Positions 8,197 to 13,076 of a stretch of DNA of 64,000 bases are shown piece by piece; positions within the stretch are counted from its first letter, which is position 1, and every line of letters begins with the position of its first letter. The stretch spans positions 27,717 through 91,716 of IMG/VR virus record IMGVR_UViG_2938709436_000001. One strand, written 5' to 3'. A program made the translations under genes and the position numbers. The notes beneath the pieces are model-generated. The model searched no databases. It had not been told where the DNA came from and saw only the letters and a program-made list of their open reading frames with translations. This DNA comes from a virus. Lineage: Duplodnaviria; Heunggongvirae; Uroviricota; Caudoviricetes.

Positions 8197-8597
8197 CTCA
8201 ACCCCAGGCTCTCGTTGTAGATATCCACAAAGTCATTGTCCAGACCTTTCTTCTTCCCGTTATCGGAGTTCTGATAAGCGGCCTGTTTCTTGTCAAGCTC
8301 TGACTGCAACTTCGCATTCTTCGCCTTCTCTTCTTCAAGTTGTTTACTCAACTCATCAGAAGCTTTTTGCTGATTGTCTTTGTAGTCATGGTTAGCATTC
8401 TTGTTCTCTTGTTGTTTAGCGACCCACTTATCATCAGTATCCTTCACGCCACGATTATAAGATGCTGTAATCTGGTCGTTATACCAGTGCTTAGTGTAAA
8501 CTGCCCCGGACAACAGGGCAATGGCTAAGAATGCTGCAACTACCAGTTTGGTATTATTCCTGATAAAGGAAATCACCAGTTTAAATATGTCTGTCAT
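8193..8597 (-). CDS. Inner-membrane spanin subunit (Rz-like)
   Basis: N-terminal transmembrane helix (LVVAAFLAIALLSGAVY) followed by a charged coiled-coil region. Immediately followed by the lipoprotein gene. Confidence 0.6.
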   Translation of the reverse strand: MTDIFKLVISFIRNNTKLVVAAFLAIALLSGAVYTKHWYNDQITASYNRGVKDTDDKWVAKQQENKNANHDYKDNQQKASDELSKQLEEEKAKNAKLQSELDKKQAAYQNSDNGKKKGLDNDFVDIYNESLGLR

Positions 8598-10018
8598 GAA
8601 ATATCCCCGTTAGATTCAATAAGCCGCTCTATTTTCAGAAGCGTTTCTTCATCATCTAAAATGTCAATCTGTGCATCGTCATAGGCGATTTTCGTTGGGT
8701 CAAGGACAGTGACCTCCAGAAGCACAGCCCCAGGTTTTGATAATCTGTCTCCCCATCTCCCTGTCTTCCCTTTCTCTCCCCACGACTTGTAAACGTCATA
8801 CGCCTCTTTCTCATCAATATAAACGTTCATGTACTTGAGGAGCTTATCAGCAGGTTTTGTCTCAAGAAGACCAACGGCCTGTTGCGGGTTGTTGGCCTGC
8901 ATCAAATAGAAGTTCTCTGCCGGACAGACACCCCACAGTTTAGAGAAATGTGGACGCCCGGTGTTGATACGTAACCGTTGATACATAGTGAAGATGTTCT
9001 CTGGTTTCAAACCACGATATCTACTGAACTGTCCTTTTTCGGATTCAGTTGCGATAGAGGAGATCAGATAATCCCCTGCTGAATCTAGTTTATCAAATAA
9101 CAGATCAAATGAAAATGGTCTTGTTTCATTGAATAAGTCTTCAACGTTTGTACCATACATCCCGCTCAGATGCGCCTTGGCATCTTCCCACGACTCGATT
9201 TTAAGTCCTGACGCTGCAATACCAAGCTTCATTGTTTCTCGACGAGAGATCGTGTAGCCACGGGCGCGATACTTATCAGAGCGTAGCATACTGATAATGG
9301 GGTAATCAGTGCCTGGGTTAATCACCAGAACTTTCTGAGCTAAGTGTTTAAGGAATCGGCTATCAAACTCCCATTTCTCGCTAGCAAAGCTAAAGCACCC
9401 CATGTTGATCGTAAAGTCGAACTTGTTAAATATTGCCTCTGCATCAGCAAAAACATCAAATGCGATCACCTGCATAACGGGAGAGGATTGATTGGTGAAC
9501 ATGACGCTCTTATCAGTCATCCCTAGATTGTAGATGGTATCTGGATTACTGTCTTCAGAGGCCTTTTGAATGGCCTTGAAAACATTACCGTTACGAGATT
9601 CAAGCAAAGAATAAAGCTTTGAAAGCTGGCTAGCTGAAAGCTCTGTAGGTGGTCGTTCTTTTCTTTCGCATACCAAGGTATTCACGTAGTCTTTATGGCT
9701 ACCCGGCTTGTCAAGCTCAAGGAAGTATACGAATGAACGCTTGGAGTTGCCCCAGTTGTTTGAAGTTGGGGTAAGATCGCTGTCCCCAACCAAGAGTCCA
9801 CGATCAGTCATGTATGCCAGAAAAACCTCAAGATTCTCCCAAGATGGGAAATAGAGATCAAGGTCATTCACTTCCCGGTTAGAGAAAAGTGATGTCAGCG
9901 TACCACCCGCAACACGGGCATCAAGCCGCTTAAGGATCTCATACACACCTTTCGGGATCAGGCTGTTGAGGATGTTGAATTCACGTTGAAAGTCTTCTTT
10001 TGGATAGATATGAAGCAT
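8594..10018 (-). CDS. Hypothetical protein with a Pol-beta-type nucleotidyltransferase-like motif
   Basis: Start chosen at the ATG (MLHIYPKED...) preceded by AAGGAG, rather than the TTG start of the track ORF (8594..10078). The sequence VAGGTLTSLFSNREVNDLDLYF fits the hG[GS]-x(9-13)-Dh[DE]h pattern. Confidence 0.5.
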   Translation of the reverse strand: MLHIYPKEDFQREFNILNSLIPKGVYEILKRLDARVAGGTLTSLFSNREVNDLDLYFPSWENLEVFLAYMTDRGLLVGDSDLTPTSNNWGNSKRSFVYFLELDKPGSHKDYVNTLVCERKERPPTELSASQLSKLYSLLESRNGNVFKAIQKASEDSNPDTIYNLGMTDKSVMFTNQSSPVMQVIAFDVFADAEAIFNKFDFTINMGCFSFASEKWEFDSRFLKHLAQKVLVINPGTDYPIISMLRSDKYRARGYTISRRETMKLGIAASGLKIESWEDAKAHLSGMYGTNVEDLFNETRPFSFDLLFDKLDSAGDYLISSIATESEKGQFSRYRGLKPENIFTMYQRLRINTGRPHFSKLWGVCPAENFYLMQANNPQQAVGLLETKPADKLLKYMNVYIDEKEAYDVYKSWGEKGKTGRWGDRLSKPGAVLLEVTVLDPTKIAYDDAQIDILDDEETLLKIERLIESNGDIS

Positions 10019-10195
10019 GGTTTTCTCCTTTGGTTTAGTTAACCATTGGAGTGTACCAGAAAAAGAAAAGCCCCGCAAGAGCGGGGCGAGGCAAAGGAGA
10101 GGAGATTGAATATTTATTATTATTAGAATATGGTGGGGTGTTCCCTACTGAGGGACTCTTACGGTGCAGGACTGCTCCTGGATACCCCATTGTTT

Positions 10196-10277
10196 TGGAT
10201 GCGTGGATGGGAGTCGAACCCACAATTTTCGGCTTATGAGGCCAACGTGATCTATATATCCGTTTCACTAACACGCA
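10196..10277 (-). tRNA. tRNA with anticodon CAT (Met/Ile2-like), with an enlarged D-loop
   Basis: Minus-strand fold: acceptor TGCGTGT/CCACGCA, anticodon stem TTGGC/GCCGA, loop CTCATAA, T-arm GTGGG-TTCGACT-CCCAT, encoded CCA. Confidence 0.5.
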
Positions 10278-10645: not shown

Positions 10646-10722
10646 TGGTGCAGATACAGGGATTCGAACCCCGACCTTTCGCCTTCGTATGACGAAGCTC
10701 TATTCCATTAAGCTATATCCGC
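10646..10722 (-). tRNA. tRNA-Arg (ACG)
   Basis: Acceptor GCGGATA/TATCTGC, D-arm TAGCTTAATGGAATAGAGC, anticodon loop ATACGAA, T-arm CGGGG-TTCGAAT-CCCTG. Confidence 0.7.
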
Positions 10723-11126
10723 AAAATTCCTGCATGTACTTTTCTATGGCAATTGGCACACAGAACCACACACTTACGTATCTCTGCCTTAAATCTCTCA
10801 GAATTGAAAGATACCATTTCAGCAGGAGACATATCTTTTTGCTCAGGGTCTAAATGATGCAGATCCAATGCAACTGGTTCTTTCTCATTACACAATAAGC
10901 AACCTTTCATTCTTTTATACCTTCTCATAAGAAGGCGGTGGAATGTCCTGATTCTTTCTGACCTTTCATTGATAGCCATTTTCCTTTTTGGATTATTGGC
11001 GTATTGGTCATTATCAATCTTCTTTTTACATTCCTTGCAAAAACCTTGATAGCCGTCTTTCTTAGATTTGTTCTTGTAGAACATTTCAAAAGGCTTATCT
11101 TGTTTGCATCGAGGGCAGTGCTTCAT
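10713..11126 (-). CDS. HNH homing endonuclease
   Basis: C-terminal HNH motif LDLHHLDP...VVLCANCHRKVH and N-terminal CPRC zinc-ribbon. Embedded in the tRNA array. Its 3' end overlaps the 5' end of tRNA-Arg by about 10 nt. Confidence 0.8.
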   Translation of the reverse strand: MKHCPRCKQDKPFEMFYKNKSKKDGYQGFCKECKKKIDNDQYANNPKRKMAINERSERIRTFHRLLMRRYKRMKGCLLCNEKEPVALDLHHLDPEQKDMSPAEMVSFNSERFKAEIRKCVVLCANCHRKVHAGILRI

Positions 11127-11346: not shown

Positions 11347-11422
11347 TGGCGGAGATACCGGGCATCGAACCCGGAACATACCCGTGACAGGGGTGTATTT
11401 TATCCGTTTAAACTATATCTCC
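11347..11422 (-). tRNA. tRNA-Asp (GTC)
   Basis: Perfect acceptor GGAGATA/TATCTCC, anticodon loop CTGTCAC, T-arm CCGGG-TTCGATG-CCCGG. Confidence 0.7.
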
Positions 11423-11427
11423 AAATT

Positions 11428-11516
11428 TGGCGGTTCCTGAAGGATTCGAACCTTCGTCGGGGATTGCTCCCGGCAGGTTAACAGCCTGCTACCATCGGCC
11501 TCTCGGTCAAAGAACC
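11428..11516 (-). tRNA. Type II (long variable arm) tRNA with a Tyr-like body but anticodon loop CTGTTAA (GTT)
   Basis: Acceptor GGTTCTT/AGGAACC, anticodon stem GCAGG/CCTGC, loop CTGTTAA, 17-nt variable arm, T-arm GAAGGTTCGAATCCTTC identical to E. coli tRNA-Tyr. Confidence 0.6.
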
Positions 11517-11685: not shown

Positions 11686-11772
11686 TGGTGGGTCGGGTGG
11701 GATTCGAACCCAACGATCCCTCGATTAAAAGTCGAGTGCCTTAGACATACGTCGCCGCTTGGCTACCAACCC
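11686..11772 (-). tRNA. tRNA, probably Lys (TTT), with an expanded D region
   Basis: Acceptor GGGTTGG/CCGACCC, perfect anticodon stem CTCGA/TCGAG with loop CTTTTAA, T-arm TTGGG-TTCGAAT-CCCAC. It carries about 10 extra nt between the acceptor and anticodon arms. Confidence 0.45.
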
Positions 11773-11777
11773 ATATT

Positions 11778-11866
11778 TGGAGGAGAGCAACAGAATCGAA
11801 CTGTCACCGTATCGCTACGATGGGACCGGGTTCAAACCGGAGTCTGCACCATGCAGCCTGCTCTCC
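11778..11866 (-). tRNA. tRNA-Ser (TGA), type II
   Basis: Perfect acceptor GGAGAGC/GCTCTCC, anticodon region CCGG-TTTGAAC-CCGG, long variable arm, T-arm GACAG-TTCGATT-CTGTT. Confidence 0.65.
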
Positions 11867-11868
11867 GG

Positions 11869-11959
11869 AGGAAGATGTCAGACTTGAACTGACACACCCC
11901 TTTTCAGGGGCTACTGTCTCTTTAGCAAAGAGATCCCTTACCGTTAGGGTTAATCTTCC
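11869..11959 (-). tRNA. tRNA-Ser (GCT), type II; 3' CCA not encoded
   Basis: Perfect acceptor GGAAGAT/ATCTTCC, anticodon stem TCTCT/AGAGA, loop TTGCTAA, long variable arm, T-arm GTCAG-TTCAAGT-CTGAC. It is followed by TCCG instead of CCA. Confidence 0.65.
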
Positions 11960-12120: not shown

Positions 12121-12212
12121 TGGCGGTGGAAGTAGGATTCGAACCTACGGACCCCTGTGAAGGGGCCGACACCTTTCCAAGGTGCTGTCTTTAACCGCTC
12201 GACCATTCCACC
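12121..12212 (-). tRNA. tRNA-Ser (GGA), type II
   Basis: Perfect acceptor GGTGGAA/TTCCACC, anticodon stem GCACC/GGTGT, loop TTGGAAA, long variable arm, T-arm GTAGG-TTCGAAT-CCTAC. Confidence 0.7.
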
Positions 12213-12988: not shown

Positions 12989-13076
12989 TGGTGGGGCGAG
13001 TAGGACTCGAACCTACGAAGGACGCGATGCCAAGGGATTTACAATCCCGCCCGTTTGCCGCTCCGGGAACCGCCCC
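12989..13076 (-). tRNA. tRNA-Tyr (GTA), type II
   Basis: Acceptor GGGGCGG/TCGCCCC, anticodon GGGA-TTGTAAA-TCCC, long variable arm, T-arm GTAGG-TTCGAGT-CCTAC. Confidence 0.75.

Follow-up and report, generated by a model that had tools for sequence, protein, structure and literature searches.

A class-II-like tRNA-Asn with a long variable arm in a phage tRNA array and its counterparts in other viruses

By the textbook rule, only Leu, Ser, bacterial Tyr, and Sec tRNAs have long variable arms, and the arm is a main feature by which aminoacyl-tRNA synthetases discriminate these tRNAs. A tRNA gene on the minus strand of a Caudoviricetes genome (IMG/VR record IMGVR_UViG_2938709436_000001), within a stretch of 64,000 nucleotides (nt) at positions 27,717 to 91,716 of that record that is called the window below, combines such an arm with the Asn anticodon GTT. 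Which amino acid does this molecule carry, and what is its arm for? The original prediction offered a misreading, recoding, or decoy tRNA on the one hand and an Asn tRNA of unusual architecture on the other, and the latter is the option that the evidence supports. Judged from its sequence, the gene would encode a functional, Asn-inserting tRNA of class-II-like build that is most likely charged with Asn, a reading to which we assign a probability of about 70%.

ARAGORN called a tRNA-Asn(gtt) at 11428..11516 on the minus strand, with the anticodon at position 35 of 89 nt, and the Rfam tRNA model RF00005 matched it with 51.2 bits (gathering score, 29; E = 6e-9), assigning the surplus bases to the variable region. 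The gene was segmented as follows.

11428..11516, minus strand: whole gene of tRNA-Asn(GUU), 89 nt, class-II-like, CCA encoded (ARAGORN, Rfam RF00005, fold, and covariation)
11510..11516, minus strand: 5' strand of the acceptor stem, GGTTCTT, pairing with AGGAACC at 11432..11438; invariant in 7/7 family members
11491..11509, minus strand: U8, G9, and the class-II-type D arm ACCGAGAGGCCGATGGT, with three Watson-Crick pairs plus G13.U22 and a 9-nt loop carrying G18 G19
11473..11489, minus strand: anticodon arm GCAGG / CTGTTAA / CCTGC, with the anticodon GTT at 11480..11482 and A37 at 11479
11456..11472, minus strand: long variable arm CGGGAGCAATCCCCGAC, with one unpaired nt, a 4-bp stem GGGA/TCCC, the GNRA loop GCAA, and a 4-nt 3' tail CGAC ending in C48
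11439..11455, minus strand: T arm GAAGG TTCGAAT CCTTC (segmentation)
11428..11438, minus strand: 3' strand of the acceptor stem, AGGAACC (11432..11438), discriminator G73 (11431), and encoded CCA (11428..11430) (segmentation)

Read along the minus strand, the segments follow one another as GGTTCTT TG ACCGAGAGGCCGATGGT A GCAGG CTGTTAA CCTGC CGGGAGCAATCCCCGAC GAAGG TTCGAAT CCTTC AGGAACC G CCA. The gene has the cloverleaf, U8, A14, G18G19, U33, TTC-R-A T loop, and 7-bp acceptor stem of a tRNA, and its minimum-free-energy fold was a cloverleaf with an extra hairpin. The predicted 17-nt variable region was borne out by the segmentation and by the Rfam placement of the surplus bases, and the perfectly paired anticodon stem GCAGG/CCTGC, presenting the loop CTGTTAA with anticodon GTT, was recovered by both ARAGORN and the segmentation. 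The bacterial tRNA-Asn identity set is complete for G34, U35, U36, and G73. The build is not that of class I: in place of a variable loop of 4–5 nt and a 4-bp D stem, the molecule has a 17-nt hairpin and a D arm of the class-II type.

This region was 100% identical to that of Enterobacter phage EC152 and 99.7% identical to that of Cronobacter phage GAP31 (Vequintavirinae, Seunavirus), and the GenBank records of these relatives already label the gene tRNA-Asn. The same long-armed tRNA-Asn was found in phages 4MG, VIK251, LNA4, Av-05, and 18-1-2, as well as in 7t3 and SE_PL, two unrelated Salmonella phages of 348 kb. An RNAalifold alignment of seven orthologues (GAP31/EC152, 4MG, VIK251, Av-05, 18-1-2, the jumbo phage 7t3, and one IMG/VR contig) gave 26 consensus pairs, of which eight had changed on both sides yet still paired. 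Three of these lay in the anticodon stem and one in the D stem, while the T stem and the variable arm had two each (GC<->UA and GC<->AU in the variable arm). The anticodon loop CTGTTAA, acceptor stem, G73, and CCA did not vary. Around this constant loop, four of the five pairs of the anticodon stem showed changes on both strands. The compensatory changes in the variable stem set the register of the arm at one unpaired nt, 4–5 bp, a loop usually of 4 nt, and a 4-nt 3' tail. In the 7t3 lineage, C11-G24 of the D stem was replaced by U-A, and the stem of the T arm had become GCTGG/CCAGC, which is the T arm of phage T5 tRNA-Asn. Comparison with orthologues in related phages had been proposed as a check on the original prediction; it found GTT and the long arm retained, and the arm stem supported by compensatory changes. 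Misreading, recoding, or use as a decoy gains no support from a GTT loop that is invariant across divergent orthologues with compensatory changes in their stems. These patterns mark the long-armed tRNA-Asn as a folded RNA under selection, the anticodon of which is fixed, and as neither a sequencing slip nor a recent mutant.

The gene also has a shared position, next to its downstream neighbor.

11347..11422, minus strand: tRNA-Asp(GTC), 5 nt downstream of tRNA-Asn; the pair matches 7t3 at 77.8% over 162 nt

The order of Asn then Asp is retained in most relatives and in 7t3; in VIK251, a coding sequence lies between the two genes. The gene occupies a slot that lies just upstream of tRNA-Asp in most relatives and that was filled by a tRNA-Asn in all of the related phages examined. 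Among sister phages, this tRNA takes three forms, all with GTT. The first is the long-armed tRNA-Asn of 89–92 nt seen in the window. The second (PVP-SE1, KB57, and KPP-1) has 85 nt, a class-I-like D arm, the acceptor GACGAG, and a 15-nt variable hairpin of 4 bp with a tetraloop, a 3-nt tail, and a compensatory C-G<->U-A change of its own. The third (SPLA5a) is an ordinary class-I tRNA-Asn of 75 nt. The long arm and GUU are thus carried by two different bodies at one position. Within the 64-kb window, where 24 ARAGORN tRNAs and 2 Rfam-only tRNAs were checked, the gene is the sole Asn tRNA. A narrow pattern for its own family matched only three viral contigs, the counterparts of 4MG, Av-05, and a phage resembling 7t3; this family is small, although the long-armed design is widespread, as described below.

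Different parts of the molecule resemble different tRNAs. The acceptor stem with G73 was identical at 14 of 15 positions to its counterpart in phage T5, which has a tRNA-Asn of ordinary build and 78 nt (GGTTCCT.../AGGAACC G), and the final 28 nt of the 7t3 orthologue were identical to the end of the T5 molecule. U8, G9, the D arm, and position 26 were identical to those of tRNA-Ser(GCU) of Pseudomonas phage PPSC2; the D-loop spacing is that of E. coli tRNA-Tyr and tRNA-Ser(GCU); and the variable arm, with 1 nt, 4 bp, a 4-nt loop, and a 4-nt 3' tail, agrees in shape with viral tRNA-Tyr, not with Ser or Leu. The closest E. coli tRNA was tRNA-Tyr, with 75% identity across positions 11–78, and none of 5,426 complete E. 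coli genomes had a match covering 80% of the long-armed tRNA-Asn. The T arm is indeed identical to that of E. coli tRNA-Tyr (tyrT/tyrV), yet this is not diagnostic: its 17-mer is shared with Thr, Ser, Lys, Leu, and Gln tRNAs of phages, and the T arm is therefore uninformative. By these comparisons, the molecule combines a class-II core with an acceptor/T half of the Asn type. The "Tyr-like body" of the original prediction accordingly describes the core (D arm, anticodon stem, and variable-arm shape) well, and does not extend to the acceptor stem, G73, or the anticodon. As a separate matter, a BLAST match to Citrobacter phage Moogle beside an annotated tRNA-Tyr was discarded as a clue to origin, being an antisense, low-identity match of one tRNA to another.

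The resemblance to tRNA-Tyr raises the question of whether the gene is a degenerate or repurposed tRNA-Tyr, that is, a recent GTA-to-GTT mutant that inserts Tyr at Asn codons or an uncharged decoy for nucleases of tRNA-Tyr (Septu/PtuAB and retron Eco7). tRNA-Tyr is the nearest E. coli tRNA, the variable arm is Tyr-shaped, and a single change turns GTA into GTT; moreover, PtuAB cuts the variable arm of tRNA-Tyr, and extra phage tRNA-Tyr can weaken this defense, possibly as a decoy (PMC13096335). Nevertheless, we regard this explanation as very improbable. Apart from the long arm of Tyr type, the molecule lacks what marks a tRNA-Tyr: the anticodon is GUU instead of GUA, in which U35 is a major determinant and A36 is required as well, and the discriminator is G73 instead of the A73 present in 77/77 viral tRNA-Tyr, G73 being an antideterminant for both TyrRS and LeuRS (PMC9976931). 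The acceptor stem is of the Asn type, not the Tyr type, and the fixation of GTT and G73 across divergent lineages with compensatory changes points to an old, selected gene. A tRNA-Tyr(GTA) of the usual kind is present separately at 12989..13076, as originally reported and as called by ARAGORN, and the tRNA-Asn has no special similarity to it. More generally, the identity of long Asn tRNAs to the Tyr, Ser, and Leu tRNAs of their own contig was approximately 0.54, compared with 0.49–0.55 for other isotypes. We therefore found no sign of recent remoulding from Tyr, Ser, or Leu tRNAs on the same contig, and by these identities the long Asn tRNAs are old lineages rather than fresh anticodon mutants, which also disfavors misreading, recoding, or a decoy role. 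Finally, the encoded CCA, the intact loop with A37, and the status of sole Asn tRNA in a near-complete set point to decoding.

In bacteria, Asn identity is made up of G73 and all three bases of the anticodon, and this set can be transferred to tRNA-Lys (PMC9976931). With GUU and G73, the window tRNA would fit AsnRS and be barred from TyrRS. Asn codons made up 44.5 per 1000 in open reading frames (ORFs) of the window of at least 200 aa, with an AAC:AAU ratio of approximately 2:1. In a 494-aa protein encoded beside the tRNA array, Asn aligned with Asn, as judged by eye, in the orthologue from SPLA5a, whose tRNA-Asn is ordinary; this, too, disfavors misreading, recoding, or a decoy, and we saw no sign of recoding.

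Three considerations weigh against Asn charging. Synthetases of the AspRS type (class II) approach the tRNA from the side of the variable loop, and a long arm might hinder AsnRS. We infer Asn charging from identity rules that were worked out on class-I bodies. Furthermore, G1-C72, G2-C71, G73, and the long arm are features of this family that would suit SerRS.

The last point leads to the more serious competitor, in which host SerRS, blind to the anticodon, charges the tRNA and Asn codons are read as Ser, whether in a deliberate, statistical form of mistranslation or as an initial step toward something else. In bacteria, Ser identity resides in the variable arm, and the anticodon plays no part in it; tRNA-Ser sequences share G1-C72 and G2-C71, G73 acts as a determinant in vivo, and SerRS has an antideterminant in C2-G71 (PMC9976931). 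The window tRNA has the long arm, G73, G1-C72, G2-C71, and C11-G24, and its D arm, as noted, is identical to that of a phage tRNA-Ser(GCU). The shape of the arm fits less well. In tRNA-Ser, the 3' tail that joins the arm to the core determines its orientation, by which SerRS recognizes it. Viral tRNA-Ser arms have 4–7 bp and a 3' tail of 0–2 nt (129 of 139 folded sequences, the other 10 having at least 3 nt), whereas the arm of the window tRNA is Tyr-type, with 4 bp and a 4-nt tail, and E. coli SerRS recognizes the tertiary structure of the tRNA (PMC9976931). In the wider viral set of long Asn tRNAs, U1-A72 occurred in 68/106 and the SerRS antideterminant C2-G71 in 41/106, so Ser identity would be unable to explain the design in general. 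The form at the same slot in PVP-SE1 and KB57 has A2-U71, and the acceptor/T half of the window molecule is of the T5 tRNA-Asn type. In addition, Asn accounts for 4.5% of codons and Asn residues are conserved by eye; a proteome-wide replacement of Asn with Ser by the sole Asn tRNA of the window would be costly. On balance, we consider Ser charging unlikely, at odds of roughly one in eight or lower by our reckoning of these features. One further piece of background speaks for it: a tRNA-Tyr of E. coli with a longer variable stem and changes at positions 9 and 73 is said, in work by Himeno et al. from 1990, to have accepted serine.

The Asn reading can also be set against known tRNAs. Ordinary tRNA-Asn (E. 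coli asnT and T5) shares the loop CUGUUAA with A37, G73, the encoded CCA, and the array slot, and differs in having a 5-nt variable loop and a 4-bp D stem, compared with the 17-nt hairpin, the D stem of 3 bp plus G.U, and G9 of the window tRNA; the first pair is U1-A72 in asnT and G1-C72 here. Bacterial class-II tRNA-Tyr shares the core layout, D-loop spacing, and variable-arm shape (1 nt, 3–4 bp, 4-nt loop, and 3–4 nt tail) and differs in GUA, A73, and the acceptor stem, and the window tRNA should not be a substrate of TyrRS. Other long-armed tRNAs have anticodons that do not match their charging. Candida tRNA-Ser(CAG) is one, and the nematode nev-tRNAs of Hamashima et al. (2012) and the allo-tRNAs of Mukai et al. 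(2017) are reportedly others. These molecules likewise join a class-II-type arm to an anticodon for a class-I amino acid, but they keep a Ser or Leu body and its discriminator, whereas the discriminator and acceptor of the window tRNA follow its anticodon. Similarly, tRNA-Ser variants with changed anticodons keep the Ser identity of their body and misread the codon (PMC9976931).

To place the long-armed design among viruses and cells, we scanned for an Asn anticodon loop followed 21–30 nt later by a standard T arm (CTGTTAAN{21,30}GGTTCRAWTCC); totals from this census are lower bounds, and fractions are rough. In IMG/VR, 108 of the 128 matches listed (120 loci) were tRNA-Asn genes by ARAGORN. 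With cultured phages included, the viral sequences comprised at least 114 distinct long tRNA(gtt), which formed 71 clusters when grouped at a body identity of 80%; the loop was CTGTTAA in 110 of the 114. Applied to 596 Gb of genomes of bacteria and archaea, the pattern gave approximately 12 long tRNA(gtt) among the 120 loci listed, of which four resembled intron-bearing archaeal tRNAs, three lay in phage-like arrays of 11–17 tRNAs, and two had Ser-like bodies. With non-tRNA matches as the yardstick of DNA read, the enrichment of viral over cellular sequences was approximately 60-fold or more. Among viral loci fetched for other reasons, a biased sample that gives a rough figure, 11 of 65 Asn tRNAs were long. 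A normal-length Asn tRNA was also present in 25 of 90 loci with a long one.

The two cellular tRNAs with Ser-like bodies, in a Prevotellaceae assembly (L210:6162-6250) and an alphaproteobacterial metagenome-assembled genome (L215:3976-4064), combine GTT with a long arm, G2-C71, and a GGAGG... acceptor, and are candidate natural mistranslators of Asn codons as Ser.

The design was not restricted to Asn. Control scans returned long-armed Lys in 66/123 and Ile in 11/120 of the matches listed, and a complete scan returned long-armed Asp in 23/93. In viral loci chosen for their Asn tRNA, long Cys, Thr, Met/Ile(CAT), and Lys were also seen, nearly none were found for Ala, Arg, and Gln, and long arms were absent from Gly (0/62), Phe (0/34), and Val (0/45). 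Most long Asn, Lys, Thr, Asp, and Cys tRNAs had one arm shape (1 nt, 3–4 bp, 4-nt loop, and 3–4 nt tail), which is also that of viral tRNA-Tyr and differs from those of Ser (0–2 nt tail and 4–7 bp) and Leu (2-nt tail). A GNRA loop capped 58% of long arms, as GCAA does in the window tRNA, and the variable regions of long Asn tRNAs folded far better than shuffled sequences (mean z = -2.8). The discriminator was G73 in 98 of the 106 viral long Asn sequences that passed our stem-pairing filters (the set used for the first-pair counts as well), A73 in 54/65 long Lys, G73 in 18/20 long Asp, U73 in 22/22 long Cys, and A73 in 77/77 Tyr; the first pair U1-A72, common in long Asn, is that of E. coli asnT. 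In these sequences, the discriminator base of long-armed viral tRNAs follows the anticodon, and its doing so in Asn, Lys, Asp, and Cys argues for faithful decoding.

Long-armed Lys(UUU), Asp, Cys, Thr, Met/Ile(CAU), Ile, and Glu tRNAs were observed across viral loci (L258-L577 etc.; Lys, L089, L083, and L261; Asp, L376 and L383), all with the Tyr-like shape of the arm and the discriminator that goes with their anticodon, and some viral contigs held several of them together.

Taken together with host enzymes, these features suggest how the window tRNA may work. It would probably be transcribed with the minus-strand tRNA array, and its encoded CCA would spare de novo CCA addition. In a class-II core with G9 and a D stem of 3 bp plus G13.U22, G15 and C48 could form a Levitt pair, and the short, GNRA-capped hairpin would jut from the variable region in a tRNA-Tyr-like shape. 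Host AsnRS would read G34, U35, U36, and G73 on an acceptor/T half like that of an ordinary phage tRNA-Asn, TyrRS would be shut out by G73 and U36, and the charged tRNA would decode AAC/AAU as a working elongator of a Vequintavirinae (Seunavirus) phage.

What the arm adds to such a tRNA is a separate matter, and our estimates for its purpose are separate from those for amino-acid identity and are not meant to be summed with them. The explanation that we prefer, plausible but given a probability well below one half, is that the arm is adaptive through escape from host tRNA nucleases: it could make the phage copy a poor substrate for defense nucleases that grip the tRNA body, such as AriB of PARIS, and translation of the many Asn codons of the phage would then continue after host tRNA-Asn has been destroyed. 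AriB cleaves host tRNA-Lys, tRNA-Thr, and tRNA-Asn at U36AAUC|N41, and in a model of the complex it holds the D loop as well; the tRNA-Asn of the host, which has the site U36AAUC|C41, is a target of second rank. With the T5 tRNA-Lys, tRNA-Thr, and tRNA-Asn, both growth and phage infection recover in E. coli under PARIS (PMC12409363). In the window, positions 36–41 read UAACCU in tRNA-Asn and UAAGCC in tRNA-Thr, and tRNA-Lys retains UAAUC; the tRNA-Asn is thus a phage copy of an AriB target isotype altered at the recognition site. In this it resembles the PARIS-resistant T5 tRNAs, which also belong to nuclease-targeted isotypes and differ from the host at positions 39–41 beside the AriB cut. 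In the T5 tRNAs and the anticodon-loop variants of van den Berg et al. (2023), individual bases of the anticodon stem-loop or of the D loop are exchanged; in the window tRNA the difference is an added arm, and in its sister tRNA-Lys an added D-loop hairpin. Two of the three AriB target isotypes in the window carry added hairpins, tRNA-Asn in the variable arm and tRNA-Lys in the D loop, which would fit an escape by change of shape.

Several observations tell against escape as the purpose. The anticodon loop is the host CUGUUAA, and nucleases that read the loop only, such as colicin E5, would not be evaded. The KB57-type long-armed tRNA-Asn retains a host-like UAAUCC at positions 36–41. The arm can also be a liability, as Septu/PtuAB and retron Eco7 cut tRNA-Tyr within its long variable arm (PMC13096335).

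The tRNA-Lys(TTT) of the window (11689..11772, minus strand; 84 nt; Rfam, 50.5 bits) has a mini-hairpin of approximately 10 nt, GAC-GTAT-GTC, in the D loop after G18G19. This hairpin is shared with 4MG and with PVP-SE1, where it is GAC-GCAA-GTC with a GNRA loop, and is not found in VIK251, KB57, or T5. ARAGORN misnames the tRNA-Lys copies of PVP-SE1 and SPLA5a "?(Ala|Cys)".

About as likely as nuclease evasion is that the arm is a neutral passenger, a product of insertion or recombination that is merely tolerated under relaxed constraint and brings no benefit, while the tRNA functions normally with Asn. Long arms occur in several isotypes and on many unrelated bodies, and the normal-length Asn tRNA that accompanies 25 of 90 long ones agrees with this. 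The HNH homing endonuclease in the array and the three forms of tRNA-Asn at one slot suggest frequent recombination, and the arm has so far been tied to no defense system. Several patterns, however, fit drift less well: the preservation of the hairpin by compensatory changes, its stability (z = -2.8) and usual GNRA cap, the one favored arm shape over 71 clusters, the bias toward Asn, Cys, Thr, and Lys compared with none of the Gly, Phe, and Val tRNAs counted above, and the viral enrichment of approximately 60-fold or more per chance match. Covariation, structure, shape, isotype bias, and enrichment would each be better accounted for by selection than by drift.

A broader possibility, which we hold with no more than limited confidence, is that bacterial viruses maintain a distinct class of tRNA with a class-II-like body, a short, Tyr-type, usually GNRA-capped arm, and cognate identity, for amino acids whose tRNAs are of class I in all cells (above all Asn and also Lys, Cys, Thr, and Asp). 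The extra arm, and the D-loop hairpin of the tRNA-Lys of this phage, may then be adaptive, as a disguise against nucleases that grip the tRNA body or as a handle for a phage factor such as the protein resembling CCA-adding enzymes that is encoded beside the array. A conserved long-armed tRNA-Asn suggests that AsnRS, and probably LysRS, AspRS, CysRS, and ThrRS, tolerate a class-II body, which is relevant to tRNA identity rules and to the engineering of orthogonal tRNAs. The arm is also a candidate for a new kind of phage counter-defense, in which the shape of the tRNA is altered instead of a few bases. The annotation of the gene as tRNA-Asn is already public; its architecture and its viral family were not found described. 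Literature searches, including one on Vequintavirinae tRNAs, returned no description of a long-armed phage tRNA-Asn or of a viral family of such tRNAs, and the key papers on phage tRNAs do not mention a variable arm on tRNA-Asn.

The array around the gene comprises 24 ARAGORN tRNA genes, all on the minus strand between 10284 and 17378, to which Rfam adds two without an ARAGORN call (10199..10277 and 11689..11772). ARAGORN thus overlooked two oddly built tRNAs of the array and misnamed their relatives, which matters for annotation. A promoter and terminator scan returned sites no commoner than in shuffled sequences, and none immediately upstream of the tRNA-Asn gene. The sequence TTGCAA-N17-TAAAGT, which ends 8 nt before tRNA-Asn and was spotted by eye, scored only 8/12, under the cutoff of the scan, and we do not claim it as a dedicated promoter. 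Two protein-coding genes belong to these surroundings.

10713..11126, minus strand: HNH endonuclease ORF of 137 aa, between tRNA-Arg and tRNA-Pro (phrog_2255, E = 6.5e-40, a partial profile match)
8594..10078, minus strand: ORF of 494 aa beside the array, conserved across Vequintavirinae, with an AGG...NDLDLY motif

In EC152, tRNA-Arg and tRNA-Pro are adjacent, without the HNH ORF at that place, and the ORF fits a mosaic turnover of tRNA genes. Sequence searches of Pfam, NCBIfam, and PDB with the product of the 494-aa ORF were empty. Its predicted structure (mean predicted local distance difference test score, 82) matched E. coli poly(A) polymerase and many bacterial CCA-adding enzymes in Foldseek with a probability of 1.0 and E-values down to 3e-5, at a TM-score of only approximately 0.3. 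Going by this model, the protein may be a divergent tRNA nucleotidyltransferase.

The other Rfam-only tRNA (10199..10277, minus strand) has the anticodon CAT, an enlarged D loop, and an Rfam score of 45 bits; its orthologues are called "Ala(ggc)" by ARAGORN and are labeled tRNA-Met in the GenBank record of PVP-SE1 and tRNA-Ala in that of VIK251. The minus-strand genes of tRNA-Ser(TGA) (11778..11866) and tRNA-Ser(GCT) (11867..11959) abut with no spacer, and both have U73, not the usual bacterial G73. Among the tRNA-Ser of the window, only tRNA-Ser(GGA) (12121..12212) has G73; U73 was present in 27 of 140 viral tRNA-Ser.

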